Assembly: GCA_963663165.1 (NCBI GenBank)
Contig: OY760175.1
Span: 5,664,001-5,728,000 of the forward strand
Direction of reading: 5' to 3'
DNA length: 64,000 nucleotides
From: an uncultured Desulfospira sp.
GTDB lineage: Bacteria; Desulfobacterota; Desulfobacteria; Desulfobacterales; Desulfobacteraceae
In this document: piece after piece, positions 5,020 through 61,559 of the stretch
Layout: each line of letters begins with the position of its first letter
How positions within the stretch are numbered: position 1 is the stretch's first letter
Notes under the pieces: generated by a model
Told to the model about the DNA's origin: nothing
The model's database searches: none
The model's input: the letters and a program-made list of their open reading frames with translations, nothing else
Translations under genes and position numbers: made by a program

Positions 5020-5115
5020 ATTACTTCTCCGTTAAAAAAGCGGTTAGCGGTTAGCATTTAGCCAATAGCCGTTGGCGGTTAGCCGCCCGGCCTGTCTGTT
5101 GCTTGCCGGGGGCTT

Positions 5116-5260
5116 GTGTTTGGGCCAAAAGTTGCCCAGATGCAAGGCGTAACCTAAAGGTCAGAAACCAGAAAAATTTGTAACCGGAGCAACCTTTGGG
5201 GTTGTGAGGATTGCAAATTTTTTTGCAACGCGGCAGATGGGTGACTTTTGGTTCAAACAC
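5116..5260. mobile_element. 145-bp MITE-like palindromic element, family A copy 1
   Basis: GTGTTTG...CAAACAC ends with long imperfect inverted arms; near-identical to 59724-59868. Confidence 0.8.
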
Positions 5261-8200
5261 TAACTCGTTGCCATCAGGGCATCGAACATCTCCTCTACCG
5301 TGGTCAACAACTGGGCCGCTGCCGTATACGCCTGCTGCTGTGCCGTCAGGTTGATCATTTCCTCGTCCAGGGAGACCGCTGAAACCGAGTTGCGCTGTTC
5401 GGTGAGTTCATACACCAGCAGTTCCGAATATTCAAGGGAGGACTGGACGCTGGATGATGTCAGGCCGATGGAGGCAATCATGGTGTCCTCATAGGTATCC
5501 AGGGTGGTCGTGGTTACCGTGGCCGTGGCGGTCTCCCCTCTGGTATAGTCCCACTCTTTCATCTCAATGGTGGTGTTCCGGGTGTCGGACATGGCCAGGG
5601 CATTGGTGTTGTCCCCCGAAGAGAGTTCCCCGGTGTCCGTGTCCACCATGCCCGAGGCCAGATAATCCCCGTCTTCCACCAGCTCATTGACGCCCATGGT
5701 GCCGGCATCGCTTCCCGTAAAAAAAGTGTTCAGGCCTAAAGCGGCGGCTACCCCGCTGTCCCCATCCTCTTCGTCTCCGGCAAAGGCATAGGAGAAGTCA
5801 GTATCATCCCTTGAGGCCAGTTCCAGCTCAATGGTTCCGTCTCCGGTGACGGTGGCATCAAAGGTGATTTCAATATCCCCGATTCCGTCCCCGTCAAGGT
5901 CTACAGCAAATCCGTCATCGTCCCCGCCTTCGGGAATGATGGAGATAATACCGCCGGTGGGGTCGTTCTCAATTTCCCAGACCCCTTCAGTTCTGACAAA
6001 CTGAAGGTCTTCAACTTCAATGGTCAGGGCGGAATAATCCAGTACCGTGATGGTGGTGTTGTCTTCGGTGATGCCATCGGAGTTGGAATAACTGACATTT
6101 TCGATGGCGCAGTAATCGGAATTGGAATCAATGACCAGGGTGTTGTCCTCGCTGACCGAGGCGGTAATCCCCCCGGCGCTTCGGTTAAGCTCATCGGCAA
6201 AGGAGTCCAGGGTCCAGTGCCAGTCGCTTAGGGTCTCGACGGTTTCAGAACTTTCACCGCTCAGGGAAGAGACCACCTGTCCGTCCTCGTCCGTGGTAAT
6301 GGTAAAGGTGTCCCCGTCCACCAGGGTGCCGGAATTAAAGTAAAGGGTCATGCCGTCCACTTCCACGGCAATGGCGGCAAGGTCTGACTCATTGCCTTCC
6401 AGGGTAAGGGTTCCGGAAGAAGCCCCGCTGGTCCACTCAATGACAATATCTTCATCGTTGTCCGGCAGGGTGCCGCCGGATACCACGGTAAAAGTATAGG
6501 TGTCGTCAATGCTGTTGGCCGTGCCCTTGACCGTGACGTCCAGGGGATCAGCCTCACCATCGGAATCCGTATTGATGGTCAGGGTGTTGCCCGCCACCAG
6601 GCTGCCTTGGGAGATTTCAAAGGACAGGGTGGTCTCTCCGTCCTCGGTGAGTTCCACCAGTCCCGGCCCGTCGATTTCAATATAGCCGGATTCGCCTGTG
6701 GCCTCCCCGTCGCTGTCAAACACCTCATAGTAGATGGTTGCCGAGTCACTCCAGGTCACGGCCGAGGTTGAATCATGAAGGGCATCACCCGAGACCAGGG
6801 TGTCGTTTTCCGGTTCGTCTGTCCCGGTGCCGGTGCCCGTGGAGACTGCAAGTTCAGCGTCCCCGGTGATGGTGTCGGTAAATCCGGTGATGGAAATGGG
6901 GTCGTCTGCCTCGGCAATTCTGACCACACTCACTGAGACCCCGTTCTGGATAACCTCGTACTCGTCCGAGGGCAGGGCAGCGGTCAGGGCAGCGTACAGC
7001 TGATCGGCCTGCGCCATGTCTGAGGTGTCATTTGTGATGGTATAGGAAACCGTATATCCGTCCAGCTCAAATTCAATGTTGTCATTCAGGCTGAAGTTGG
7101 TATATCCGCCGGCGCCTCCCAGGGTGATCAGGCTGTTGCCGGAACTGGTAATACCCGAATCCCCGAAAAGCCCGGCTGCGGTCGAGTCATCGGAAAAGAT
7201 CTCCATGTTCGGATCCGTGAGGATGGTCACGCTGCCGGTGGCAACGGCCGCTGTGGTGCTGCCTGAATCGGCCACCGCAACAGTGCTGGATGTACTGGAA
7301 CTGCCTTCACAACCGCCCAGTTCAAACATGATATAATCGCCGGTGACCTCTACTGGCGAAAACGCGGCCGTATCTGAATTGTCAAAGGCAAGGGTTGTGT
7401 CCCCGGTTGTTATGGTGCTGCCGGAAAGGGCGTCTACCTCTATTGTCGCATCATCTCCCGTATCGCCTGAGGCCGAGGAGAGGCTGATGCCCGTGCCGTC
7501 GGTGGTCCTGATAATCACCTGTCCATTGGTTTCATCCAGTTCCACGGTAAAGGGGGTATCCCCAAGTTCCCCTTCCAAAGCATCGTAAAAGGCCTGGGCC
7601 ACTGCATCACTGTCAGTGGTGTCCACACCCGATAAGTCCACGCTTACGGTGACCTCATCCGGGGTAGACGCATCCGTGGAAAGGGTCAGGGTAACCGTAT
7701 CCCCTTCATCAAAATTCTGGAAATTGTCAAGGTAAATACCGCAATTATCCGTTACCCCGAAATCCTGAACCCCGATGGTGGCGCCCGAGGTGCTTGTAAT
7801 GGTGGTCCCGTCCAGTACCAGGTCGGTGTTCTGGTTGGTTTCGTTGATCTTCTCCACCGCCGCTTCAAGGGCGGCCTCAAGGCTTTCTTCAAGACCTGCA
7901 TCGCTATTGTCATCAACGGTGAAGCTGACGGTTGTTTCCACACCGTCCACGTATAGGGAAAATTCAATGGTATCCCCTTCCTGGGCCCCGGAAACATAAA
8001 GGCTCTCAAGGCTGAGGGTCACCTGGGTGGTGGAGGCATAGGCGGTGATGCCGTCAATGCGGCTGAGCGCTTCGGCAATGTCTGCGGCAGAACGGGTTGC
8101 TCCGGATCCTGAATCGCTGATTTCAAGCGTCTGGGTGCCGCCCGACCCGGTGATGGTCAGGGTTTGTTCGGCTATGGCCGCATCCAGGGCATCGCTCACT

Positions 8201-12665: not shown

Positions 12666-12746
12666 GGAAACTCCTTTTTTAGCTTTTAGCTTTTAGCTAT
12701 TAGCCGTTAGCCTTTCAGCTGTCAGCTAACAGCTAATAGCTAAGGG

Positions 12747-13871
12747 CTATTTACTGATTGACGTTACATTGGACACGGACACTAAACGGCCATTGTCAAG
12801 TTCAAGGTACTGGGTTCCGCTGACCGACTGGATGGCCACCACTTCGCCGGACGTCGGGGTGGTGGCTGAATCCCCGCTGGCCGTTTCCACGGTGTAGTAG
12901 TACAGCCCATCGTCGGCTGCGTAGCCGGTATCGGCCAGGGCATCCCAATGGACGGAATTGTCACCGGCCGAGGTGTCATCGGCATCCACTTCAATGGTGG
13001 CCACCGCTTCATCATTGGCATCATAAATGGTGATGGTGACCGCTTCGGGAGCGTCCAGATAAAAGGTTAAATCGTCACCGCTGACCGTTGAGTCTTCCAC
13101 CCGGACAATGGGATAATAGGTGGACACCGTGGTTCCCAGGTATTCCAGGACAGAGACGGATGAACTGTCGGAAGATGTTTCAGTGGCGTCGGTGACCGTG
13201 GTGACTGATGAAGGGTCCAGCAGCAGGCCGCCGACCACCAGATATGCTTTGCCGTTCAGGTAGGAGACGGCATCCACGGTGCCGGTAATGGTGGAGGTGA
13301 TTTCTTCATACCCGGACCCGGAATTGGCCATGACCACGTAAGTATAAGTGGCGTCATCCACGGCACCCCCGCTGGAATCGGTGCCGTCCCAGGAAATCAG
13401 ATAAGAGCCGGCATCCACCTGCCCCTCATCCAGGGTGGTGACCAGGCTCCCGTCCTCGTCATACACCAGGACATAGACATCGGCGGCCTCATCCAGGTCA
13501 TAATACCCTGAGGACACGCTGCCGTCCTCAACGGTCATGGTGTCAACGGTGCCCGTAACCTGCATGCCCACAAAAACCGAGGCGTCCACTTCCTCTTCGA
13601 AATCGGTCACGGCTTCCAGGGTTTCATCCATTTTGTCGTTTAAGTTGATCAGCTGTTCCAGCTGGGAAAACTGGGCCAGCTGGTCTGTGAACTGGGAGGT
13701 ATCCGCTGGATCAAGGGGGTTCTGGTTTTCAAGCTGGGCCACCAGGAGGGTTAAAAAATCTTCTGTCCCCAGGTCACTGCTTGAGGTGCTCTCTGTTTCC
13801 GTATCTTCTGAAGAGACATAGCTGGAAACCAGAGACTGCAGTATGGTGCTGTCCACAGATGAGGTTGACAT
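12747..13871 (-). CDS. flgD: flagellar hook capping protein with duplicated C-terminal region
   Basis: FLTLLVAQLENQNPLDP...QLAQFSQLEQL; Ig-like module WDGTD..G..V.D..Y.Y occurs twice. Confidence 0.9.
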   Translation of the reverse strand: MSTSSVDSTILQSLVSSYVSSEDTETESTSSSDLGTEDFLTLLVAQLENQNPLDPADTSQFTDQLAQFSQLEQLINLNDKMDETLEAVTDFEEEVDASVFVGMQVTGTVDTMTVEDGSVSSGYYDLDEAADVYVLVYDEDGSLVTTLDEGQVDAGSYLISWDGTDSSGGAVDDATYTYVVMANSGSGYEEITSTITGTVDAVSYLNGKAYLVVGGLLLDPSSVTTVTDATETSSDSSSVSVLEYLGTTVSTYYPIVRVEDSTVSGDDLTFYLDAPEAVTITIYDANDEAVATIEVDADDTSAGDNSVHWDALADTGYAADDGLYYYTVETASGDSATTPTSGEVVAIQSVSGTQYLELDNGRLVSVSNVTSISK

Positions 13872-25965: not shown

Positions 25966-27361
25966 TTAAAAAGGTACCGGATATTCCCGGCAAAGCGCCT
26001 GTACCTCACGGGACACCCGCTCAAAGGTGCCGGGGGCACCGGGGTTGGACATGGTTTTGTCCATGAGATCCGCGATAACCCCCATTTGCAATTTCCCCAT
26101 TCCCCTGGCCGAGAGGGAACAGGTCCCGAGCCGGACCCCGCTGACCGCGCCCTGGCGGTCAGAATCCCGGGGGATGACATTCCGGTTGGCCACAATGCCC
26201 ACAGCTTCAAGCGCCTTTTCTGTGGCGCCGCCTTCAAGGCCCTTGCTGCCCACATCAATGATCACCTGATGGTTGTCGGTTCCGCCGGACACGATCCGGT
26301 AACCGTGCCGGGACAGTGCGGCTGCCAGGTGTTTTGCATTTTCAATGGTATTTTGCTGGATGGCTTTAAATCCCGGCCCCATGGCCAGCTTAAAGGTAAG
26401 GGCCTTGGCCGCCATAACGTTCACCGGGCTGGTGTCCTGGCACCCGGGAAAGACGCTGGCGTTTATTTGTTTTGCGTATTTTCCCCGGCTTAAAATCACA
26501 CCGCCCCTGGCGCCCATCATGGTTTTATAACAGGTAAAGGTGACAAAATCACTGTGCCGGACCGGGCTTGGAATGGCGCCGCCGGCCACCAGACCCGCGA
26601 TGTGGGCCATGTCCACCATAAAGTAAGCGCCAATGTCCCGGGCAATTTGGGAGAGCTTCTCATAGTCGATAAGCCTGGCATAGGAGCTGGCCTCGGCAAC
26701 GATCATTCTGGGCTTGAATTCATGGGCCATGGACTCGACTTGCCGGTAATTGATCCGCTCCGTGGTGAGGTCTACTGAATAATGTTTAAACGAAAGTAAC
26801 TATTCAGCTAATGCTGAAAACTAAGCAAAATCAGGGTCCGTAACTGTTCATCAGTGCTTCATATTTGTTTAGTCAGGACTTCGTAGCATACTTTTGCTAT
26901 GTGAGAAGGCCTGAATGAGCGAAGATGGGGCACTGATGAACAGTTACAAACGAAAAACATTTGCTGGTAATGGACGCCCGGTGGCCGTGGGAAAGGTGAC
27001 CCCCATGGGGAAGGTGCATGGAAAGGATTTTATCCCCCACATCCAGAATACTGAAATAAACAGCCAAATTGGCCGATGTCCCGCTGTGGGGCTGAACATT
27101 GACGTGCTCTGCCCCAAACAGTTGTTTCCCCCGTTCCATGGCCAGGTTTTCCACCTGGTCGGCAAACTGGCAGCCGGCATGGAACCGCCTGCCCGGGTAT
27201 CCTTCAATGGTCTTGGTGTTAAAGACAGACCCTAGGGCCTCCATAACAGAGACCGGGGAATGGCTTTCAGCTGCAATCATGTTAAGGGTGGTGTTGATCC
27301 TGGTGTCTTCTTTTTTGATCAGTTTGGCAATTTCAGGGTCATCCCTGGATATGAACGTCAT
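25966..27361 (-). pseudogene. glyA: serine hydroxymethyltransferase-like gene interrupted by a MITE
   Basis: EGYPGRRF, HVNVQPHSG, GGHLSHG, DMAHIAGLVA, VSGGTDNH, SGVRLGT; removing the insert plus one TSD restores a 411-codon frame. Confidence 0.9.
26796..26947. mobile_element. 152-bp MITE, family B copy 1, 8-bp TSD AAACGAAA
   Basis: TIR GTAACTATTCA / TGAACAGTTAC; direct repeats at 26788-26795 and 26948-26955. Confidence 0.92.
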
Positions 27362-31687: not shown

Positions 31688-31755
31688 CTTGGGACTTGGG
31701 GCGGCCACGGACGCTGCAATCCCCAAGTCCCAAGCCCCATATCCCAAGTCCATTT
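31688..31755. repeat. palindromic heptamer repeat (TTGGGAC / GTCCCAA type), copy 1
   Basis: similar to 47129-47212. Confidence 0.7.
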
Positions 31756-31795: not shown

Positions 31796-31948
31796 GTAAC
31801 TATTCAGCTAATGCTGAAAACTAAGTAAAAATCAGGGTCCGTAACTGTTCATCAGTGCTTCATATTTGTTTAGTCAGGTCTTCGTAGCATACTTTTGCTA
31901 TGTGAGAAGGCCTGAATGAGCGAAGATGGGGCACTGCTGAACAGTTAC
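31796..31948. mobile_element. 153-bp MITE, family B copy 2, 8-bp TSD TAAAATTT
   Basis: near-identical to 26796-26947; direct repeats at 31788-31795 and 31949-31956. Confidence 0.92.
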
Positions 31949-32147
31949 TAAAATTTTAAGCTTTTGGAGCTGAGTAGCACAGAGAAACACTTTAGTTTCA
32001 GTGCTGCGCATTGAAATTTCATCCGTTAATCCCGGTAGGGCAGATTCAGCACAGTGAAACCCATCACTGGGCCGGAAACCGGATATCGCGAATCCCTCAG
32101 GCTTCCGCATCCGGTATCCTGTCTCCCTTCTTCCGGTCTCCGTTTCT

Positions 32148-35528: not shown

Positions 35529-36521
35529 TTAATACAGCAGAAGTTGGGATCTCAGATTGGCTTTTTTATTGACCAATCCGATTTTTTTTCGGATATTTTC
35601 CCGGTGAAATTCCACCGTTCGCAAAGCAACATTAAAAAAATCGGCAATTTCCTTATTGGATCGTCCCTCTTTAATCAGGTTGGCGACCTGGATTTCCCGG
35701 GGGGTCAGATTAATCAGGGGCGATGAAAGCTGTTGGGAGAAGGGGGAGGTCAGATTCTCCAGGTTGGCCTGTAATGCCCCAAGGCATGTCCTCTGGGAAT
35801 CGGTAAGACGGCTCGTCCCCAGTTTTTCCAGATAGGGCAGCACAATTTTTTTCATGTTTGCCAGCACCTTGCCTTCAAGCTCGTCTTTGTCGTCTTCGCG
35901 GGCCTTGAGGATCACCCGCAAAGCAATATTGGCCTCTTCGAGTGTTTTTGATTTGAGGTCAAGTTCCGCAGTCCGCTTGATCAGAACCCCTTCGGCTTTT
36001 TTGCGTTCGCCAATTTCAGCATACAGCCGGTCATTGAGGATGGTCAGTTCACGGGTCCTCTCCCCAACCCGGGCTTCGAGCATGGCGCGTGCCTCGGCCA
36101 GTTCGTTTTCCGCTTTTTTCCGGTCCGTGATGTCCTTGGTAACATGAACCATCCCGACCATACGATTGTGGTCATCAAATATGGGTGAGGCGGAAATCAC
36201 AAATACTTTGCCCAGCCTCCGGTTTTCCACCTCAATGGTATGGGACCTCTGGTCCTGCACCACATCCTCAACCGGACATACACGGCAGTTTTTTTCCCTG
36301 CCCCACAACGCCTCGTGGCATTTGCAGTTTGCGATCTGATCAAGTTCAACCTGAAACCCTTCAAGAAACGATTGATTGGCTGAAATGATCCGTTTATCAA
36401 GGTCCAGAATCGTTACATAATCCGTGATGGCATCCAGGATCCGCCAGCACTGCCCCAGAACCGCAACGGCCTCTTCTCTGGTAATGCTTTCAGGTGCTTT
36501 TTTTGGGGCGTTTTTTTTCAT
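35529..36521 (-). CDS. PAS-LuxR family transcriptional regulator
   Basis: Cys-bearing PAS (KCH...C.VCPV), LTPREIQVANLIKEGRSNKEIA...TVEFHRENIRKK; start uncertain. Confidence 0.88.
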   Translation of the reverse strand: MKKNAPKKAPESITREEAVAVLGQCWRILDAITDYVTILDLDKRIISANQSFLEGFQVELDQIANCKCHEALWGREKNCRVCPVEDVVQDQRSHTIEVENRRLGKVFVISASPIFDDHNRMVGMVHVTKDITDRKKAENELAEARAMLEARVGERTRELTILNDRLYAEIGERKKAEGVLIKRTAELDLKSKTLEEANIALRVILKAREDDKDELEGKVLANMKKIVLPYLEKLGTSRLTDSQRTCLGALQANLENLTSPFSQQLSSPLINLTPREIQVANLIKEGRSNKEIADFFNVALRTVEFHRENIRKKIGLVNKKANLRSQLLLY

Positions 36522-36707
36522 ATGTGTCTGCCGCTGTCCGCTTTTGTGTTGACCAATTGTACAGGGCTTATGCGGTTTGTCAACGGTCTTTGCCAAGAGA
36601 ATACTGCCCGCACAAAAATAAAGAAGGTATTTTTTAAATAGTTTTCAGATTTCATTGACTTTGCCCCCCCAAATATAGCATTTTACCATAAACCATCGAA
36701 GATACGG

Positions 36708-39299: not shown

Positions 39300-39379
39300 C
39301 CGCTAAAAAGGTTTGCAAAACAAATCCGTCAGTGTTATGGAACTTTAATCAACAACCCATCAAACATGAGGAAATGCGC

Positions 39380-39856
39380 ATGACTGAAAAAGCCTTTCAA
39401 GACTATTACCCTGATGATTTTTCCCACTGCTATGGATGCGGCAGGCTCAATGAACACGGACTGCACCTCAAAAGCTATTGGGATGGCGATGAGACCGTCT
39501 GCCGGTACCAGCCCCGGGCCTATTATACGGGAGGGTTTCCCGGTTTTGGATATGGCGGCCTTGTGGCATCACTGCTGGATTGTCACGGAACCGCTTCTGC
39601 GGCAGCCGCAAAATACCGGGAAGAGGGCCGCGACATGGGGACCGAGCCGGCGCTGCGATTTGTTACCGCCTCCCTGAAAGTGGATTTTATTGCCCCCACA
39701 CCCATAGACGGGGTTTTAGAGGTGCGCGGAAAAATCAAGGAAGTGAAAGGCCGTAAGGTCACCGTCACGGAAACCCTTTTGGCCGGCGATAAGGTAGTCG
39801 CAAAAGGTGAAATGATCGCTGTATCCATACCGGCTGATTTTATGGAAGGAAAATAG
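39380..39856 (+). CDS. PaaI/hotdog-fold thioesterase
   Basis: CYGCG..N..GL, YGGLVASLLDCH, VTASLKVDF..PTP. Confidence 0.85.
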   Translation: MTEKAFQDYYPDDFSHCYGCGRLNEHGLHLKSYWDGDETVCRYQPRAYYTGGFPGFGYGGLVASLLDCHGTASAAAAKYREEGRDMGTEPALRFVTASLKVDFIAPTPIDGVLEVRGKIKEVKGRKVTVTETLLAGDKVVAKGEMIAVSIPADFMEGK

Positions 39857-39951
39857 ACGCCCACCACGGCAGTTTTTATTTCTGCCCCACAGGGCCTCAT
39901 GGCATTTTAAGCCGGCAGCTTGGCTTAATCCTGCCTGGTTCTTACGGGGTT

Positions 39952-40215
39952 TTATATGAAAGTCTCACTAACCTCCTGAGAAGACTTTCATTATTTGTTG
40001 TGGGCGGTTCTTGGTTGGATAACCAAGACGGCCCGTGGCCCTTATAAGAAACTGGAGACAAGAAACAAGAGACAAGAGGGCGAAGCACCTGCGGTGCCCA
40101 ATTTATAGACTACCGTTGCCGGTATCTTCAGTTTCATTATTCGTTGTGGGCTTGTGGCCCATGGCAGTTATATGAAAGTCTCACTAGCTGTCTGTAAAGA
40201 CTCCCATTTTTCGTT
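39952..40215. repeat. cluster A of a ~90-bp structured repeat (3 units: full, variant, truncated)
   Basis: units start at 39952, 40042 and 40168 with TTATA(T/A)GAAA. Confidence 0.85.
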
Positions 40216-40690
40216 AAGTCTTGAAGCACATTTGTGGGAAGAACCTGAAGTCCAGGCCGAGGAACGGCAGATGGACTGGCCGGACTATGCCCGGTTTGTT
40301 CTGTCCGAGTGTCCGGTCAATGCGAATAGGGCCAGTTTTATCCGCAGAACCCTGATCCGGAATCTAAGGGCACATCTGTCTGCTGGGGATGCCGGTTCAC
40401 AAGTGCGATCATACTGGATGGTTGAATACAAAAATATGTTTAACCGGTATGAATTCTGGTCTGTCAGGATTTTAGTCGGCAGGGACAGGGAAAACGATAT
40501 TCAGCTAAAAGATTCAGCTGTGTCCAAGCGCCATCTGATGCTGGCCTTTGATTTGCTCAACTGGTGGGCCATTGATCTGAAGAGCAAAAACGGTATCCGG
40601 GATCATGAATCAAATTGGGTCTCCTGCACCGTTATGAGTCCGGGCCGGCCGTTATATCTGGGAAACAGCAAGCTTATTTATCTGCCATGA
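40216..40690 (+). pseudogene. 5'-truncated FHA-domain gene
   Basis: VGR...NDIQL.D.AVS.RH...DL.S.NG; the ORF-track N-terminus is simply translated repeat. Confidence 0.65.
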
Positions 40691-40719
40691 CCTTTTGCCT
40701 ATTATGAGGCGGAACAGCA

Positions 40720-41166
40720 TTGCTTGAGTTGGAATTCAAACGGGACAGAAAAAACTGGAAGCTGGATCAGGATCGGATCAGTATTGGGCGGGATGACTCA
40801 AATGACATCATACTTGGCGATGACCGGGCCTCCGGATTTCACGCCAATATTATCCGTAACCTGGACAAATTTGAAATCGTTGATCTTGGAAGTTCAAACA
40901 GGACTTTCATCAACAATGAATACCTCAAAGGCCGGCGGGAACTCAAACCCTGGGACCGCATCTGCTTTGCCGGTATCGAGGCGGAAGTCAAGGACACCGA
41001 AGGCCGTCAGCCCACAATGGTCCAGCCGGTGATTGATGATTCCTTTAATCCCCGGGACCGGTCAACGCCGCTCAATGGTCAGGCTAAATTAACAGCCTTG
41101 GAACCCTGTAACGGTGTGCCGGTCAGCGTAAATATCAGCCGGGCACCGCCCTCAAAGAGTCTCTGA
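40720..41166 (+). CDS. FHA-domain protein, probably 3'-truncated
   Basis: IGRD.SNDIIL.DDRASGFHA...DLGSSN.TFIN; the tail runs into a PP2C fragment in another frame. Confidence 0.72.
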   Translation: MLELEFKRDRKNWKLDQDRISIGRDDSNDIILGDDRASGFHANIIRNLDKFEIVDLGSSNRTFINNEYLKGRRELKPWDRICFAGIEAEVKDTEGRQPTMVQPVIDDSFNPRDRSTPLNGQAKLTALEPCNGVPVSVNISRAPPSKSL

Positions 41167-41285
41167 CAATAGCCCATCAGGCGATTCTCGACGCCGTGGC
41201 AGACGGCAACGGCAGCCGGGGCATGGGCACCACGGTCGTGGCATTAAAGCGAAACGGCCGGGATTATGAGATCGCCTGGGTCGGA
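41142..41285 (+). pseudogene. internal fragment of a PP2C-type Ser/Thr phosphatase
   Basis: frame reads GTALKESLTIAHQAILDAVADGNGSRGMGTTVVALKRNGRDYEIAWVG (GMGTT and AWVG motifs; DSR lost). Confidence 0.75.
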
Positions 41286-41595
41286 CGGCCGGGTGGATCA
41301 TGAGGACCTTGAAACCCTGGTGGGGGATGTCGGCCGGACAGACTGTTCTTAAAATTGAAGGAAGACCGGAGACCGGAATGCGTAAGTTTTTAGAATGCGC
41401 GGCATCCGGTCTCCCGCCTCCGGTTTCCGGTTTGCATCCTTGCCCCATTTCCCCAATTTGAGGTTTGTAATTTCCCCTTTAAGCAAACCGGGTAAGCTTA
41501 GAAATTCTTCCATAAATTTTCCTGAATCTAATCTTTTTCTAAAAATATAGCTGTAGGCTTTTGCCTGCGGCTCGACCCCTGCTTCTGATTTTTTT

Positions 41596-41776
41596 TTATA
41601 TGAAAGTCTCACTAACGAGCTGAAAAGACTTTCATTTTTCGTTGTGGGCGGTGCTTGGTTGGATAACCAAGGCGGCCCGTGGCCGTTATATGAAAGTCTC
41701 TCTAACATCCTGAGAAGACTTTTATTTTTTTTTGTGGACGGTTCTTGGTTGGATCATCCAAGTCGTTCGTGACGGT
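41596..41776. repeat. cluster B of the ~90-bp structured repeat (2 tandem units)
   Basis: units 41596-41685 and 41686-41776, same orientation as and highly similar to 39952-40041. Confidence 0.88.
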
Positions 41777-41800
41777 TTATATAAAAAGGACGTATAAAAA

Positions 41801-43624
41801 ATGAAATTCTCACTTGCCTTGCTCGCCTTTGCCATCGGTGTAATTTTCTTTTGCTTCTCAGCCGGTGCTGACCCTGTGGTCGTTCAGTTTCCGTCCTCAG
41901 ATCAAACCGCAGCCCGGGATTCCGACGGACAACGGGTTATTGTTATGTTAAAAGAAACCCCTGAGATCACATCTGCCAGGGCCGCCGGCCGGCTTGGTAA
42001 TCCCGTCGGCAGAAAACAGCAGAAAAACCGGGTTAAGGCTCTTCAGGACCAGGTGCTCGACAAGATTCCCGAGAACCGGGTTCAGATGATTCACCGGTTT
42101 TCATTTGCCCCGGCCTTTGCCGCAACCATCACGGCCGAAGGGATTGAACAGCTAAACGCCATGGAAGATGTCGTTTGCGTTGAAAAGGACCGTGTTGTCC
42201 ACGCCCATACCACCCAGGGCCTGGCTGTCATGAATACCGGTGAGGTCCGGCCGGCTTATTCGGGCCGCGGCGTATCCATTGCCGTTATAGATACGGGGAT
42301 TGATTATACCCATCCCGCGTTAGGGGGCGGCACCTTTCCCAATGACAAGGTTATCGGGGGGTATGATTACGGGAATGGGGATGACGACCCTATGGATGAG
42401 CACGGACATGGCACAAGCTGCGCCGGAATTGCTGCAGGAGATGTCGTGGAGAATGGGGATTATGCCGGCGGTGTGGCCCCGGGGGCAAAGCTGTATGCTT
42501 TGAAAATTACCCAGAATAGCGGTAACAGTTCCAATGATTCCACCATCATTGATGCCATTGAGTGGTGTATTACCCATAAAGACGATGATGGGGATTATCC
42601 CATTAAAATCATCAGCATCAGTTTTGGCGGATATGCTTACAGCAGCGCCTGTGACGATATATACGGGGGTCTTTATGCCGCAGCAGCAGCCGATGCGGTA
42701 TCTGCCGGCATTACCGTATTTGCCTCTTCCGGCAATGACGGGTATTGCGACGCCATTGCCGCCCCGGCCTGCCTTTCAGACATTATTTCTGTGGGGGCTG
42801 TGTTTGATGCCGATATCGGCGGGGTGGGGTTTTGCGTGGATTCCGGTTCCTGCGCCGATAACATGGAAGACTACAGCAGCTGCAATACCGGCACTGTGGC
42901 CTGGGCTTACTCAACCGGTGCTGATATGGCGGCACCTTATACCAACATGTCCGACGATCTGGATATTCTGGCCCCAAGCCACAATGCCGCCACGCCAGAC
43001 ACGACCGGTACCAGCGGAAATTATACGGACGAAGCCTATGAAAGCGACTTCGGCGGCACTTCGGCGGCTTGCCCCTATGCCGCCGGCGTGGCCGCAGTCA
43101 TGCAAAGCGCCATGGTCACCGCTCATGGGGAATTCTTAACCCCGGGGCAGATTAAAACCAGAATGACCGGGGCCGGTGAATCCATTGACTACAGTGCCGC
43201 CGATCTCACCAAACCCAGGGCAGATCTGGGCAATACCGACATTGATGGCGACGGGCTGCCCTGTGAATGGGAAATTGCTTATATGGATACCATTGGAAAC
43301 GATGCCGATACGGATATTGATGAAGACGGGCTCACCCAGCTCGAAGAATACAGCAGCGGCACCGACCCGTCAGCGGTGGACACCGATGAGGACGGGATGC
43401 CCGACGGGTGGGAGGTGGACAACGGCCTTGACCCCCTCACCGATGACAGTAATGAAGACCCGGATACGGATTCCTATACCAATATCCAGGAATACCTGGC
43501 CGGAACCGATCCTGCAGACGGTTCGGATTATCCGGTCCCGGTTCCTGCAAGCAATTACCTGCTTTTGGCGTTATCTTTTATGTTTTTAGTGTTTATAGGG
43601 GGTAAGTTGGGAAGAAATGCCTGA
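41801..43624 (+). CDS. secreted subtilisin-like S8 peptidase with Asp-rich Ca-binding repeats and a C-terminal membrane anchor
   Basis: signal and propeptide; triad IDTG / HGTSCAG / GGTSAACP; DxDGDG.PD.WE repeats; VPVPA-TM-basic tail. Confidence 0.9.
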   Translation: MKFSLALLAFAIGVIFFCFSAGADPVVVQFPSSDQTAARDSDGQRVIVMLKETPEITSARAAGRLGNPVGRKQQKNRVKALQDQVLDKIPENRVQMIHRFSFAPAFAATITAEGIEQLNAMEDVVCVEKDRVVHAHTTQGLAVMNTGEVRPAYSGRGVSIAVIDTGIDYTHPALGGGTFPNDKVIGGYDYGNGDDDPMDEHGHGTSCAGIAAGDVVENGDYAGGVAPGAKLYALKITQNSGNSSNDSTIIDAIEWCITHKDDDGDYPIKIISISFGGYAYSSACDDIYGGLYAAAAADAVSAGITVFASSGNDGYCDAIAAPACLSDIISVGAVFDADIGGVGFCVDSGSCADNMEDYSSCNTGTVAWAYSTGADMAAPYTNMSDDLDILAPSHNAATPDTTGTSGNYTDEAYESDFGGTSAACPYAAGVAAVMQSAMVTAHGEFLTPGQIKTRMTGAGESIDYSAADLTKPRADLGNTDIDGDGLPCEWEIAYMDTIGNDADTDIDEDGLTQLEEYSSGTDPSAVDTDEDGMPDGWEVDNGLDPLTDDSNEDPDTDSYTNIQEYLAGTDPADGSDYPVPVPASNYLLLALSFMFLVFIGGKLGRNA

Positions 43625-47054: not shown

Positions 47055-47128
47055 GTTTGGCCTGCGCCAATCCATCGCAGGGTAGCTGAGCTGCCCACAG
47101 TTTGATGCCTGTAAGCATAATGTATAAA

Positions 47129-47212
47129 ATTGGGACTTGGGATATGGGACTTGGGACTTGGGGAGGCCGTGGATACTGCAATCCCCAAGTCCCATATCCC
47201 AAGTCCATTTTT
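47129..47212. repeat. palindromic heptamer repeat (TTGGGAC type), copy 2
   Basis: TTGGGAC x3-4 ... CCCAAGT arms; similar to 31688-31755. Confidence 0.7.
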
Positions 47213-47332
47213 TTGGAGATCAACCCGATTTCTCAAGGTGATGATGCATTGTATTAAGTGTCATATACTGATATAAAACGTTGCGTAAGTGATGGGGAAA
47301 AGCAAGAACGCATATACGGGCAGGAGAAGCGC

Positions 47333-47974: not shown

Positions 47975-48394
47975 ATGGAAAAGGGAAATAAAATTTGCGT
48001 CATTGACGGCCAGGGCGGGGGAATCGGTGCAGTGGTCATTAAAAAACTCAAAGAGACCTTTGGGGAGAGGATCGAAGTGATTGCCTTGGGGACCAATGCC
48101 ATTGCTACAGCCCAGATGCTCAAGGCCCGGGCCAACCGGGGCGCCTCAGGGTCCAACGCCATTATTCAGACGGTTAAAAAAGTCCAGGTGATTATTGGCT
48201 CCGTAGGCATCATTATGCCCCACGCCATGATGGGTGAGGTCACCCGCGATATGGCCGAGGCGGTCTGCCTGTCTGACGCCAAAAAACTGTTGATCCCCCT
48301 AAGCCAGGAAAACATCAGTATTGTGGGATTGACGGGCTTGCCCCTTCCTCAGCTGGTGGATGAGCTTATAGAAACCCACTTAAAAGATATCTAA
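47975..48394 (+). CDS. DUF3842-like protein
   Basis: VIDGQGGGIG, ALGTNAIAT..MLKA.A..GASG, MMGEVT. Confidence 0.78.
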   Translation: MEKGNKICVIDGQGGGIGAVVIKKLKETFGERIEVIALGTNAIATAQMLKARANRGASGSNAIIQTVKKVQVIIGSVGIIMPHAMMGEVTRDMAEAVCLSDAKKLLIPLSQENISIVGLTGLPLPQLVDELIETHLKDI

Positions 48395-48453
48395 TGTTTG
48401 AACGAGACGTCACCCATCTGCTGTGTTGCAGCCGGGTGACTTTTCGTCCAGAC
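48394..48453. mobile_element. internally deleted family A element, copy 3 (inverted)
   Basis: TGTTTGAACGAGACGTCACCCATCTGCTGTGTTGCAG...GGGTGACTTTTCGTCCAGAC matches both ends of the reverse complement of 59724-59868. Confidence 0.7.
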
Positions 48454-50296: not shown

Positions 50297-50410
50297 TTAT
50301 ACCTCCATATGGTCACCCCTTTGGGGGGATATCATTTTTTTAGCTGTTAGCTATTAGCTTTTAGCCATTAGCCGTTGGCTTTCAACGTTCGTTGCGGCCG
50401 CTGGTCAATC

Positions 50411-53462: not shown

Positions 53463-53782
53463 GTGCTATAATAATTTGGAGCCCAGTACCAAATCGTAAA
53501 AATTAATAATGTCGTTATACCTATCACTTAATCCGTAAAAATCAACTGATATCTTATAATTTTTTAGAAAAAACAAATCATTACTATGAAAAAAACCTGT
53601 GATGGGATATGGAATAAAAAAACAACTTACCTTTTTGTTATAAAACCCGGGCGTTGTCTGGTATGGTATTCTGGACATGACGCCCTCAACGAACCATGAA
53701 AGCCATGAAGGTCACAGAAAGGGCAGCCCTAACAACCTTCAGCCTAAACCCCTTCAACCTTTCAACTAAAGGATAATAAATA

Positions 53783-59700: not shown

Positions 59701-59723
59701 GGGATTTGGGCTGAACGAAGGCT

Positions 59724-59868
59724 GTGTTTGGGCGAGAAGTTGCCCAGATGCAAGGCGTAACCTAAAGGTCAGAAACCAGGAAAATTTGCAACCGGAGCAA
59801 CCTTTGGGGTTGTGAGGCTTGCAAATTTTCCTGCAACGCAGCAGATGGGTGGCTTTTCGTTCAAACAC
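59724..59868. mobile_element. 145-bp MITE-like palindromic element, family A copy 2
   Basis: near-identical to 5116-5260. Confidence 0.8.
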
Positions 59869-61559
59869 TAAGCTATTTTGTCGGTTAGGGACTGCGCATG
59901 GATAATATATTCCTTATCCATAAATCCGGACATGAACTGGTAATCGGCAAACACGCCCAAAAGGGTCTTGGCAAAGTATTTGTTCTTATTTATCAGGTCA
60001 TTGAAGCCCGGGGCAAACAGCCTTTCGCCAGGGCAGATATGATGGTTGAAAAAGGTTGAGTAAAAGGCCCGCTGGGGTTTGTAATAAAGGGCATAAGAAT
60101 GGAGCCGTTTCTTGATGTCTTTTTGGACATCCACCCCGGTCATGGGGCGTTCGGAATACCGGCAAAGCTCTTCAAAACAGCTCTGGTGCAAAATCCGGCG
60201 CAAACTGGCCGTCAGTTCCATGGTCCGGTCCTGGGTGGCCAGACCCACATCGGCTTTAAGGGCCATGACCGGCTCAAGGGTTTCATAGGTGGCCTTTTTG
60301 ACCAGTCTGATATAGGCTTCCCGGACCCGTTGTTTTTCCTCGAGAAGATCCTGTTCTTCCAGATTCAGGTTGTCTATGGCGGTCCGGATTTCGTTAAGGC
60401 ATTGGCCGAGCCGGTCGGCGGTGTCCGTTTCCTCTCCGGATGACCATGCATTGATCCTTGATTCCAGTTCGTCATAACACAGGCTGAAAAGGTCTAAAAA
60501 CAGGGTCTGGTAGTTGGGATCGGTTTTAAATTCACGGCAGTAAAGCACCAGGGATTTATAGTAAAATACCCGGTTCAGCCGGTACCGGACCCCGGCATAT
60601 CCAAGCTCCTTGAGCAGTTCTGAGTGGCCGTTTCCGCCATCTTGTTCCCCGGTGCCCACCAGGAACAGCCGGGCCAGGTTTTTCTTTAACTGGGTATGTT
60701 CAGCCCCTAGAAGCTGTTTAAAGGTTGAACCGGTGGCCTGCCTTAAATGGCCTGCGGAAAAAAGAAACCGGTCTATTTCCCTTAAGGTCTGCTGGGCGGC
60801 CTGACTTAATTTTTGCATGGCCTTTAAAAATTTCTTAGGGTCCTGTTCATTCCCCAGGATATAAGCCCGTGTATCAATGATCTTTTCCAAAAGGCCGTTT
60901 TTCTGGTTGAGTTCCTCCCTGGCCTTTTGGATGATCCCGGACAATACCTTGTTGTCCATTTTGGGCAGCCTGGCCCCCACCAGCCGGCAGACCAGGTCGG
61001 CATCGTTGATGTCCTCCAGGTGGCTTCGCCAGGGCTTGTCCTCTGCCAGGGCCTGGGTGAGATTCTTTAACGTCTCGCCGGCCAGGGTTTTATAGTCCCG
61101 GCCGGAACCGCTTTCAAGGATCAGCTGTTTCAGGCCGGGCTCCAGCAGATGGGTGTCCAGCTCATTGGCATCATTCTTGATCCTGCCAAAATAGGTGATG
61201 ATCAGGTTCTGGGTCAAGTTTTCAATGGCGGCCTTGATCCCGGCTTCATGAATGTCCCGCTCAGACACGCTGACCCCGCATTCAAAGGCAAAGGGCGCGG
61301 CTTTGCTGGTCAGCAGATCCAAAAGGGTATACAGGTCGCTGATATAGTCATCGGGAACAATCAGGTGGTTGTCCCTGACCTGTTCTATAAAGAAAGAGAC
61401 AATTTTTCTGACCGGCACCAGGACCTGATCGTTCTCATCCCGTTTGAACCACTTGATAGGGGCAAGCCCATCCGCGCCCTTTTGAAAAATCTGGGGGATT
61501 TTTTTGTGGTACAGCCTGTCCCGGAATGTTTTAATCCTGTCTTCACTGATTGTTTTCAT
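59868..61559 (-). CDS. hypothetical helical protein
   Basis: long ORF whose likely start (MKTISED) overlaps the upstream gene end; no motif recognised. Confidence 0.7.
   Translation of the reverse strand: MKTISEDRIKTFRDRLYHKKIPQIFQKGADGLAPIKWFKRDENDQVLVPVRKIVSFFIEQVRDNHLIVPDDYISDLYTLLDLLTSKAAPFAFECGVSVSERDIHEAGIKAAIENLTQNLIITYFGRIKNDANELDTHLLEPGLKQLILESGSGRDYKTLAGETLKNLTQALAEDKPWRSHLEDINDADLVCRLVGARLPKMDNKVLSGIIQKAREELNQKNGLLEKIIDTRAYILGNEQDPKKFLKAMQKLSQAAQQTLREIDRFLFSAGHLRQATGSTFKQLLGAEHTQLKKNLARLFLVGTGEQDGGNGHSELLKELGYAGVRYRLNRVFYYKSLVLYCREFKTDPNYQTLFLDLFSLCYDELESRINAWSSGEETDTADRLGQCLNEIRTAIDNLNLEEQDLLEEKQRVREAYIRLVKKATYETLEPVMALKADVGLATQDRTMELTASLRRILHQSCFEELCRYSERPMTGVDVQKDIKKRLHSYALYYKPQRAFYSTFFNHHICPGERLFAPGFNDLINKNKYFAKTLLGVFADYQFMSGFMDKEYIIHAQSLTDKIA

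Follow-up and report, generated by a model that had tools for sequence, protein, structure and literature searches.

Hairpin repeat arrays in a sulfate-reducer genome as probable gene-less miniatures of an IS110-family element

The window, a 64,000-nt stretch of the genome that we call G000, carries two short arrays of a structured repeat, A and B, with two FHA-domain open reading frames between them and an S8 peptidase gene behind the second (Table 1). All five unit starts of the original prediction on the + strand (39952, 40042, 40168, 41596 and 41686) were correct by sequence and profile search. The units are 90, 126, 48, 90 and 90 nt long in that order, four being whole and one, which ends after ...TTCGTT, being cut. 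In the first of them a right-end box is followed by 10-bp inverted arms round a 16-nt loop, a left-end motif, hairpin 2, and CGTG with 4 further nt; the 126-nt type recurs in 52 near-full matches in G000. Array B was rightly said to abut the S8 peptidase, whose start lies 25 nt past it. The intervening DNA had been described as broken signalling genes; the two FHA frames could be confirmed, whereas a third piece, presumably PP2C-like, had no Pfam match. The frame at 40154 had no homologue in 300 other genomes. An inverted remnant had been suspected near 53682-53702, where a left-end motif does match, although weakly.

Table 1. Repeat units, their parts and neighbouring features in the window
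Feature	Position	Strand	Basis or remark
TT (AA on the element's strand)	39950..39951	-	core/extra T's at right-end junction of array A; sequence, empty-site offsets
Mini-element 1, 90 nt	39952..40041	-	profile match 98.6 bits; ends match IS
Mini-element 2, 126-nt type	40042..40167	-	first loop long, containing heptamer repeats; second hairpin short
Mini-element 3	40168..40215	-	cut at 48 nt within left-end motif
FHA-domain ORF	40154..40690	+	frame opens within repeats; no homologue found; outside element
Second FHA-domain ORF	40720..41166	+	outside element
Mini-element 4, 90 nt	41596..41685	-	7-T run precedes; sequence, profile
Subterminal inverted arms of element 4	41600..41635 (arms 41600-41609, 41626-41635)	.	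ends comparison, folds
TTYGTTGTG motif	41638..41646	+	complementary to 5' side of predicted donor loop of helper RNA; conservation, covariation
Hairpin 2, CRTG and four freely varying core-adjacent bases	41647..41685	-	motif comparison
Mini-element 5, 90 nt, more diverged	41686..41775	-	72.6 bits
Landing site of array B, TTTAT on + / ATAAA on element's strand	41776..41780	-	immediately precedes S8 peptidase RBS
Possible decayed left-end motif, opposite orientation	53685..53701	+	weak, E 0.31 with left-end profile; intergenic

Other repeated sequences lie nearby. Directly before array A, the fragment at 39865-39930 matches the PAS-LuxR gene at 35529-36596, and the counterpart of this gene in the relative G001, at 86-88%, and is the remnant of a second PAS-LuxR copy. 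The segments 26827-26950 and 31828-31951 belong to a 124-nt palindromic repeat family (98% alike), members of which serve elsewhere in G000 as landing sites for the miniatures described below. A 149-nt repeat with inverted ends (5115-5263, 59723-59871 and 48392-48453) is probably another miniature element family. Hairpins of heptamer-like tandem repeats were seen at 41357-41440, 31688-31751, 47126-47213, 5039-5076, 12674-12749 and 50341-50379; one of them sits between the two arrays, and many copies occur genome-wide.

On either strand, the 90-nt units fold into two hairpins (z -4.4 to -5.8 against shuffles, 0/200), whereas the 126-nt unit shows no such clear excess (z about -1.45). The predicted fold across a unit junction is multi-branched and not the single long hairpin that had been drawn. 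The paired change in the arms of the unit at 40042 is real, and in 323 elements from several genera, kin among them not being independent, Watson-Crick pairing at positions 1-4 is retained in both stems more often than in shuffles, and all four pair types are represented. Position 1 is paired in 112/125 cases in stem 1 (65.5 in shuffles) and in 57/70 in stem 2 (33 in shuffles). The claimed strand specificity survives at the CATG/CGTG position, which pairs only on the + strand (T-A in 94/171, T-G in 67/171). As to a general wobble bias, G-T and A-C mismatches in the variable stems (90 vs 70) did not differ significantly (p 0.13). A comparison of positions 39300-42000 with Rfam gave no match at E up to 5.

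The units are a small part of a large family. A profile search of G000 (6.74 Mb) returned 317 matches in 248 clusters, distributed evenly over both strands; 257 of the matches are full length. The arrays run head to tail, and only 5/248 clusters are of mixed orientation. A three-motif regular expression, some matches of which are loose, found 292 elements, which form 217 arrays with 1 to 5 members each. Because both flanks fall in long open frames in only 45/217 arrays, while such frames cover 86% of G000, the copies are mostly intergenic. Related units occur in 8/41 relatives and in 14/151 genomes of the order, and among the matches listed, records that carry a name come mostly from Desulfobacteraceae and other Desulfobacterales, which makes a sulfate reducer of this kind the probable host. 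Neither the unit pattern nor the recombinase protein considered below was found in viral contigs. When flanks in G000 were compared by eye with 1.2 Mb of G001, about 27/50 collinear comparisons, some of which represent paralogous repeats, were empty at the other site, 19 of them with an offset of -1 to -3; the TT shared by the empty sites is the core.

This distribution does not agree with the idea that the two clusters bracket a cassette, for their units are five of about 300 dispersed copies. Gaps of up to 2 kb between arrays numbered 13/216 against 13.5 expected, seven of them between arrays of the same orientation. Synteny breaks occurred at 14/39 arrays and 69/241 control intergenic gaps (p 0.35) in the region that shares synteny with the 1.2 Mb of G001, after exclusion of 6 arrays (both window arrays included) and 49 gaps that had no match. 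The 1.4-kb segment between the clusters is unique among 41 genomes. In G001 the window's 36.5-43.5 kb is missing and one unit stands there, but no boundary can be read from it because its flank does not match cluster B. The segment is bystander DNA. Dispersed copies free of any link to breakpoints, and units that match an IS-end family, are what the original prediction had itself named as speaking against a cassette system.

The IS in question is an IS110-family element. G000 has three copies of a 419-aa IS110 recombinase, 100% identical to each other, with PF01548, PF02371 and NF033542 above cut-off, a DEDD RuvC domain and a Tnp domain with serine; residues D22, E73, D109, D112 and S310 align with those of IS621. 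In reverse complement the IS starts with TTTTATATGAAA and ends with TTTCA-NNN-TTCGTTGTG-hairpin-CATG-NNNN-TTATA. These are the conserved boxes of the unit, and therefore the unit read on the minus strand is a left end followed by a right end. Its loop 1 takes the place of the gene and non-coding region of the IS; the equivalents of the subterminal inverted arms enclose, in the complete IS, both the recombinase gene and the guide RNA. The core TT is found on both sides of the miniatures, and the A count at the right junction varies from 3 to 4. Judging from these sequence comparisons, the 90-base units are very probably (we would put it at roughly 90%) gene-less miniatures in which both ends of an IS110-family element are joined round a small hairpin. 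The units lack a recombinase gene. Because their ends are unrelated to each other and the repeats are subterminal, they are not classical MITEs, which have terminal inverted repeats.

The unit and the recombinase were each found in 8 of 41 genomes and both together in 5, in which the recombinase is at >=58% identity. With the queries used, neither recombinase nor RNA region was found in G001, G019 and G022, which carry units, nor in G737, which has units and is 74% complete. No circle junction was found in the contigs of four sequencing runs when these were compared with the IS; contigs drop rare molecules. One helper copy is interrupted in the 3' stem of its RNA by a 1.9-kb element present in at least 10 copies (G000:C1:4961840-4963720), and another element interrupts a fourth IS left end 70 nt from its start (G000:C1:4913738-4913807). 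The miniatures also receive insertions. Four lie inside other miniatures in opposite orientation (G000:C1:2956283, 3693290, 4169382 and 341509), three of them at CACTAAC of loop 1. Loop 1 also holds unrelated repeats such as REP-like doublets and heptamer runs (L031, L043 and L037; G745 and G727), so that the miniature ends can carry small passengers.

An IS110-dependent miniature, MITEPpu9, has been described with 8 copies (PMC12288879). In the passages covered of that report, the likeness is close: MITEPpu9, the ssr9 module of ISPpu9 in Pseudomonas putida KT2440, is gene-less and flanked by IS110 end boxes, one of about 43 nt that includes a palindrome and one of 16 nt. It also shares with our units a purine dinucleotide core and tandem copies, and its circles are made in trans (PMC12288879). 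It differs in that its 8 copies lie at REP sites, as against about 300 at a 5-nt motif here, and in that its interior is an sRNA gene instead of a replaceable loop (PMC12288879). The core is AG there and AA here, and the ISPpu9 RNA region lies upstream (PMC12288879). A MITE census did not mention the present family in the passages covered (PMC11602168).

In the IS, a 3' non-coding region of about 370 nt downstream of the gene contains a conserved structured block. The predicted RNA pairs show two-sided changes in 14/18 cases; the prediction did not include the stem that closes the first loop. Guides were parsed in 73 of 122 redundant loci. In 39/39 distinct guide/target pairs the target guide is identical to the five bases that precede the left end; among 12 distinct 5-mers, 36/36 variable positions match, against 12.5 by permutation. 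A second stretch of the RNA equals the right end exactly in 40/47 cases, the variants ATACAA and ATTCAA included. On the right side of the target, relatives gave a weak top-strand signal (55/152 vs 40, p 0.004) and the G000 miniature sites none. A strictly one-sided target was therefore softened as a proposal, in view of the signal in distant relatives. A distal or hairpin-dependent target guide gave no signal (flank folding p 0.28).

The position of the RNA differs among relatives. In the plasmid relatives L360-L377, most of which have an AG core, the block is upstream of the gene; in the sulfate-reducer clade L236-L358 it is downstream. Relatives at 33-40% identity, ISArsp3 included, have the same RNA upstream. 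In a tree of 46 rows, which was used for this purpose alone, the 3'-RNA elements at >=52% identity form one supported clade. The change in position is a relocation within one lineage.

The flanks of the miniatures may preserve the guides that placed them. Among 182 well-ended arrays the landing sites were TATAA in 64, ACTAA in 44, AATAA in 32 and ATAAA in 9, and the one-step intermediate TCTAA in only 4/182 (p 7e-12). The guides of relatives include all four landing classes, whereas G000 encodes only TATAA; this is also the sequence before 4/4 IS left ends, as well as the commonest class of the mini-elements. In G001, 34/46 landing sites are TATAA and 0/46 are ACTAA. Three landing-site classes suggest several helpers over time, and the simplest reading of them would be lost helpers that shared one donor address. 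Helpers with other guides (ACTAA, AATAA), now absent, would then have moved the same miniatures.

For the movement itself, we propose that the two ends join into a small circle, which would be recombined at 5-nt targets of the form NNN-AA. A 92-nt circle would probably be single-stranded or dumbbell-shaped, and the resident recombinase with its predicted bridge RNA likely copies miniatures to new sites in trans. The resident guide ATATAA is also found in the element's right end, so that new copies would stack head to tail, and a guide that spells the element's own right end likely explains the head-to-tail arrays. Full IS copies inside mini-element arrays were preceded by a right end in 5/5 cases in G005 and 11/11 in G745. 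This right end belonged to a miniature or to an IS, and G745 has full copies head to tail. In G000 one IS copy abuts a mini-element left end, an arrangement also seen as a loose end in two sequencing runs. The 5' T-run lengthens with array size (2.3, 3.1, 4.0; p 2e-4), as repeated insertion predicts, although the growth is less than the 2 per unit of a strict model: array A has two extra T's for three units.

It is possible to accept the IS110 origin and still regard the miniatures as relics, with arrays produced mostly by slippage or unequal exchange and a left-end motif bound by protein. In G001, 74 elements occur in 1.2 Mb with no helper found; many sites are common to both genomes and hence old, and one helper copy is broken in its RNA stem. 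However, the three helper copies are 100% identical, neighbouring units of an array differ in type, many sites are filled in one genome only, and a protein-bound motif is not expected to change together in DNA and RNA across six variants. We consider the relic view unlikely, and current or recent movement by the resident helper has, from the sequences, a good chance of being correct.

The left end of the element is where the predicted RNA would depart from studied systems. Here the bases beside the core vary freely, and what is conserved is CRTG, GTTGTG and a hairpin between them whose length differs, the two motifs being 9-36 nt apart in the various genera and about 50 nt in one type; the TTYGTTGTG motif is 97-100% conserved in 290 elements recognized with up to 2 mismatches. 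A right donor guide on the top strand next to the core was not seen, a 5-of-5 complement being present in 0/27 elements. Instead, the 5' side of the donor loop carries CACAAC, which is the top strand of the left end beyond the hairpin. The 27 elements were chosen for diversity, 10 from the 122 loci and 17 of the 18 plasmid loci (L374 was excluded, its RNA not being placeable); anchors of the distal motif were set by eye and kin are not independent. With these settings the distal pentamer was exact in 18/27, against a null of 4.25. With one row per distinct pentamer, 6/12 were exact against a null of 0.75 and a maximum of 5 in 50,000 shuffles. ACAAC, ACAAA, ACCAC, ACCCC, ACCTT, ACCAT and TTCGT changed in step in the element and the RNA. 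Of the 9/27 inexact cases, 3 become exact if a G-U pair is allowed, L373 was mis-anchored, and L313, L368 and L369 disagree. An automated, error-prone parse gave 7/20 vs 0.8.

From these co-changes we think it somewhat more probable that a distal guide pairs with the left-end motif than that it does not. On the bottom strand the donor loop would have two partners, the right end and the motif about 15-20 nt into the left end, beyond the hairpin; both donor guides would thus pair with the bottom strand, which is the window's + strand. Folding at hairpin 2 would put the motif opposite the core-adjacent bases, close to the fold drawn in the original prediction; the donor left end is about as likely to be read in folded form as not. 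The predicted guide RNA likely reads the element's end in a way unlike that of the family members studied so far. A result from ISPpu9, in which mutation of the left-end palindrome did not stop circle formation, speaks against a distal guide, as far as the passages covered report it (PMC12288879).

The comparisons that follow likewise hold for the parts of the reports that were covered. The element resembles IS621 in its DEDD and serine residues, in a two-loop RNA with target and donor guides and in a core dinucleotide (PMC11208160, PMC11208158, PMC13626964), and is unlike it in having the helper RNA downstream of the gene. The IS621 target consists of 9 + 4 bases on opposite strands, whereas here 5 are strict and the other side is weak (PMC11208160, PMC11208158). 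For its right donor guide IS621 uses the top strand next to the core, whereas our second stretch matches a distal motif on the same strand (PMC11208158). With the IS1111 group (ISEc11, ISPa11 and ISKpn4) the element shares a long 3' non-coding region, subterminal inverted repeats and a top-strand complement located 5' of a bottom-strand match; the repeats there are 11-13 bp at 7 + 3 nt, and here they are 7-9 bp long and stand off the core by 30 nt on the left and by about 5 nt on the right (PMC11187229). ISPpu10 and CazIS110-1 are alike in that a DNA hairpin contributes to recognition, and they yield single-stranded circles and tandem by-products (bioRxiv 10.64898/2026.03.19.712850; 10.1101/2025.10.25.684509). 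In ISPpu10, however, the hairpin is in the target and both guides are on opposite strands, while our hairpin is in the left end of the donor (bioRxiv 10.64898/2026.03.19.712850); the bottom-strand circle of CazIS110-1 did not integrate (bioRxiv 10.1101/2025.10.25.684509). No description of the repeat or of a distal same-strand donor guide was found in a search of openly readable article text; Extended Data Fig. 10c of PMC11208160 could bear on this claim.

Taken jointly, these features would define a clade of bridge recombinases of about 410 aa with a split same-strand donor address, in which one guide serves the right end and the second a pentamer that becomes accessible only upon extrusion of the left-end hairpin. 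Helpers that have the donor address in common but differ in their 5-nt target guide would cross-mobilise 90-nt passengers into self-stacking arrays, and the clade would extend over sulfate reducers, Bacillota, Burkholderiales, Actinomycetota and Chloroflexota. We hold this combined picture to be about as probable as its opposite.

A functional small RNA, such as an antisense regulator of the helper's bridge RNA in the manner of Ssr9, is a much less probable identity for the unit. In its favour, both sides of the donor loop, as predicted, find their complement on the unit's + strand, where a G-U pair is preferred at one position, and MITEPpu9 encodes an sRNA in the part of the report covered (PMC12288879). 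Yet the units have no promoter-like site, the Rfam comparison was negative, and loops are freely replaced by unrelated repeats, which leaves a side role at most.

Still more improbable is a REP- or REPIN-like repeat moved by a Y1 HUH transposase (RAYT or IS200 TnpA), although hundreds of intergenic hairpin copies and 14 Y1 matches in the genome might recall one. REP, BIME and REPIN repeats alternate in orientation and flank the Y1 gene of their RAYT, whereas the present arrays are head to tail with the few mixed clusters given above, a copy lies within 1.6 kb at only 3/14 Y1 loci, and IS200-like ends differ. The three IS200-like tnpA elements L001-L003, nearly identical to one another and ending in hairpins, have no relation to the unit. 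Reverse transcriptases (11 matches) were also considered: RNA domains of group II introns are present at 7/8 scanned loci, and no connection with the unit emerged; some of the group II intron loci L105-L111 are in tandem.

Least of all can we credit attC- or attP-like sites of an integron- or Xer-type tyrosine recombinase that bracket and move the 1.4-kb segment: the G-TTA junction, the strong folds, a box that we take to resemble an XerD arm and one copy adjoining an XerD-like gene recall such sites, but an integron attC pairs inverse core with core in one hairpin and lies in a clustered array with its integrase, whereas the units have no inverse core-core pairing, are dispersed at chance spacing with no link to breakpoints, enclose unique cargo, and have both ends explained by the IS110 element. 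The XerD-like gene is a housekeeping one among 71 tyrosine recombinase matches in G000. From the resemblance to attC and CTX attP sites, action in trans on a folded site had been proposed; action in trans by an enzyme outside the window is partly upheld and the folded strand may matter, but the tyrosine type is not upheld.

The reading of the units as miniatures of an IS110-family element explains a major repeat family of sulfate-reducer genomes that resembles integron or REP repeats, and the local feature in the window is itself ordinary. IS110 bridge recombinases are under development as programmable DNA tools, with donor rules known from few members. The natural donor variants, about 300 of them in this genome and hundreds more among its relatives, indicate which end bases are fixed and which are free, the smallest natural donor being about 55 nt. 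They suggest a guide geometry absent from the literature searched, five strict target bases and orthogonal target guides used with one donor. If this is true, the miniatures would record past guides in their flanks.
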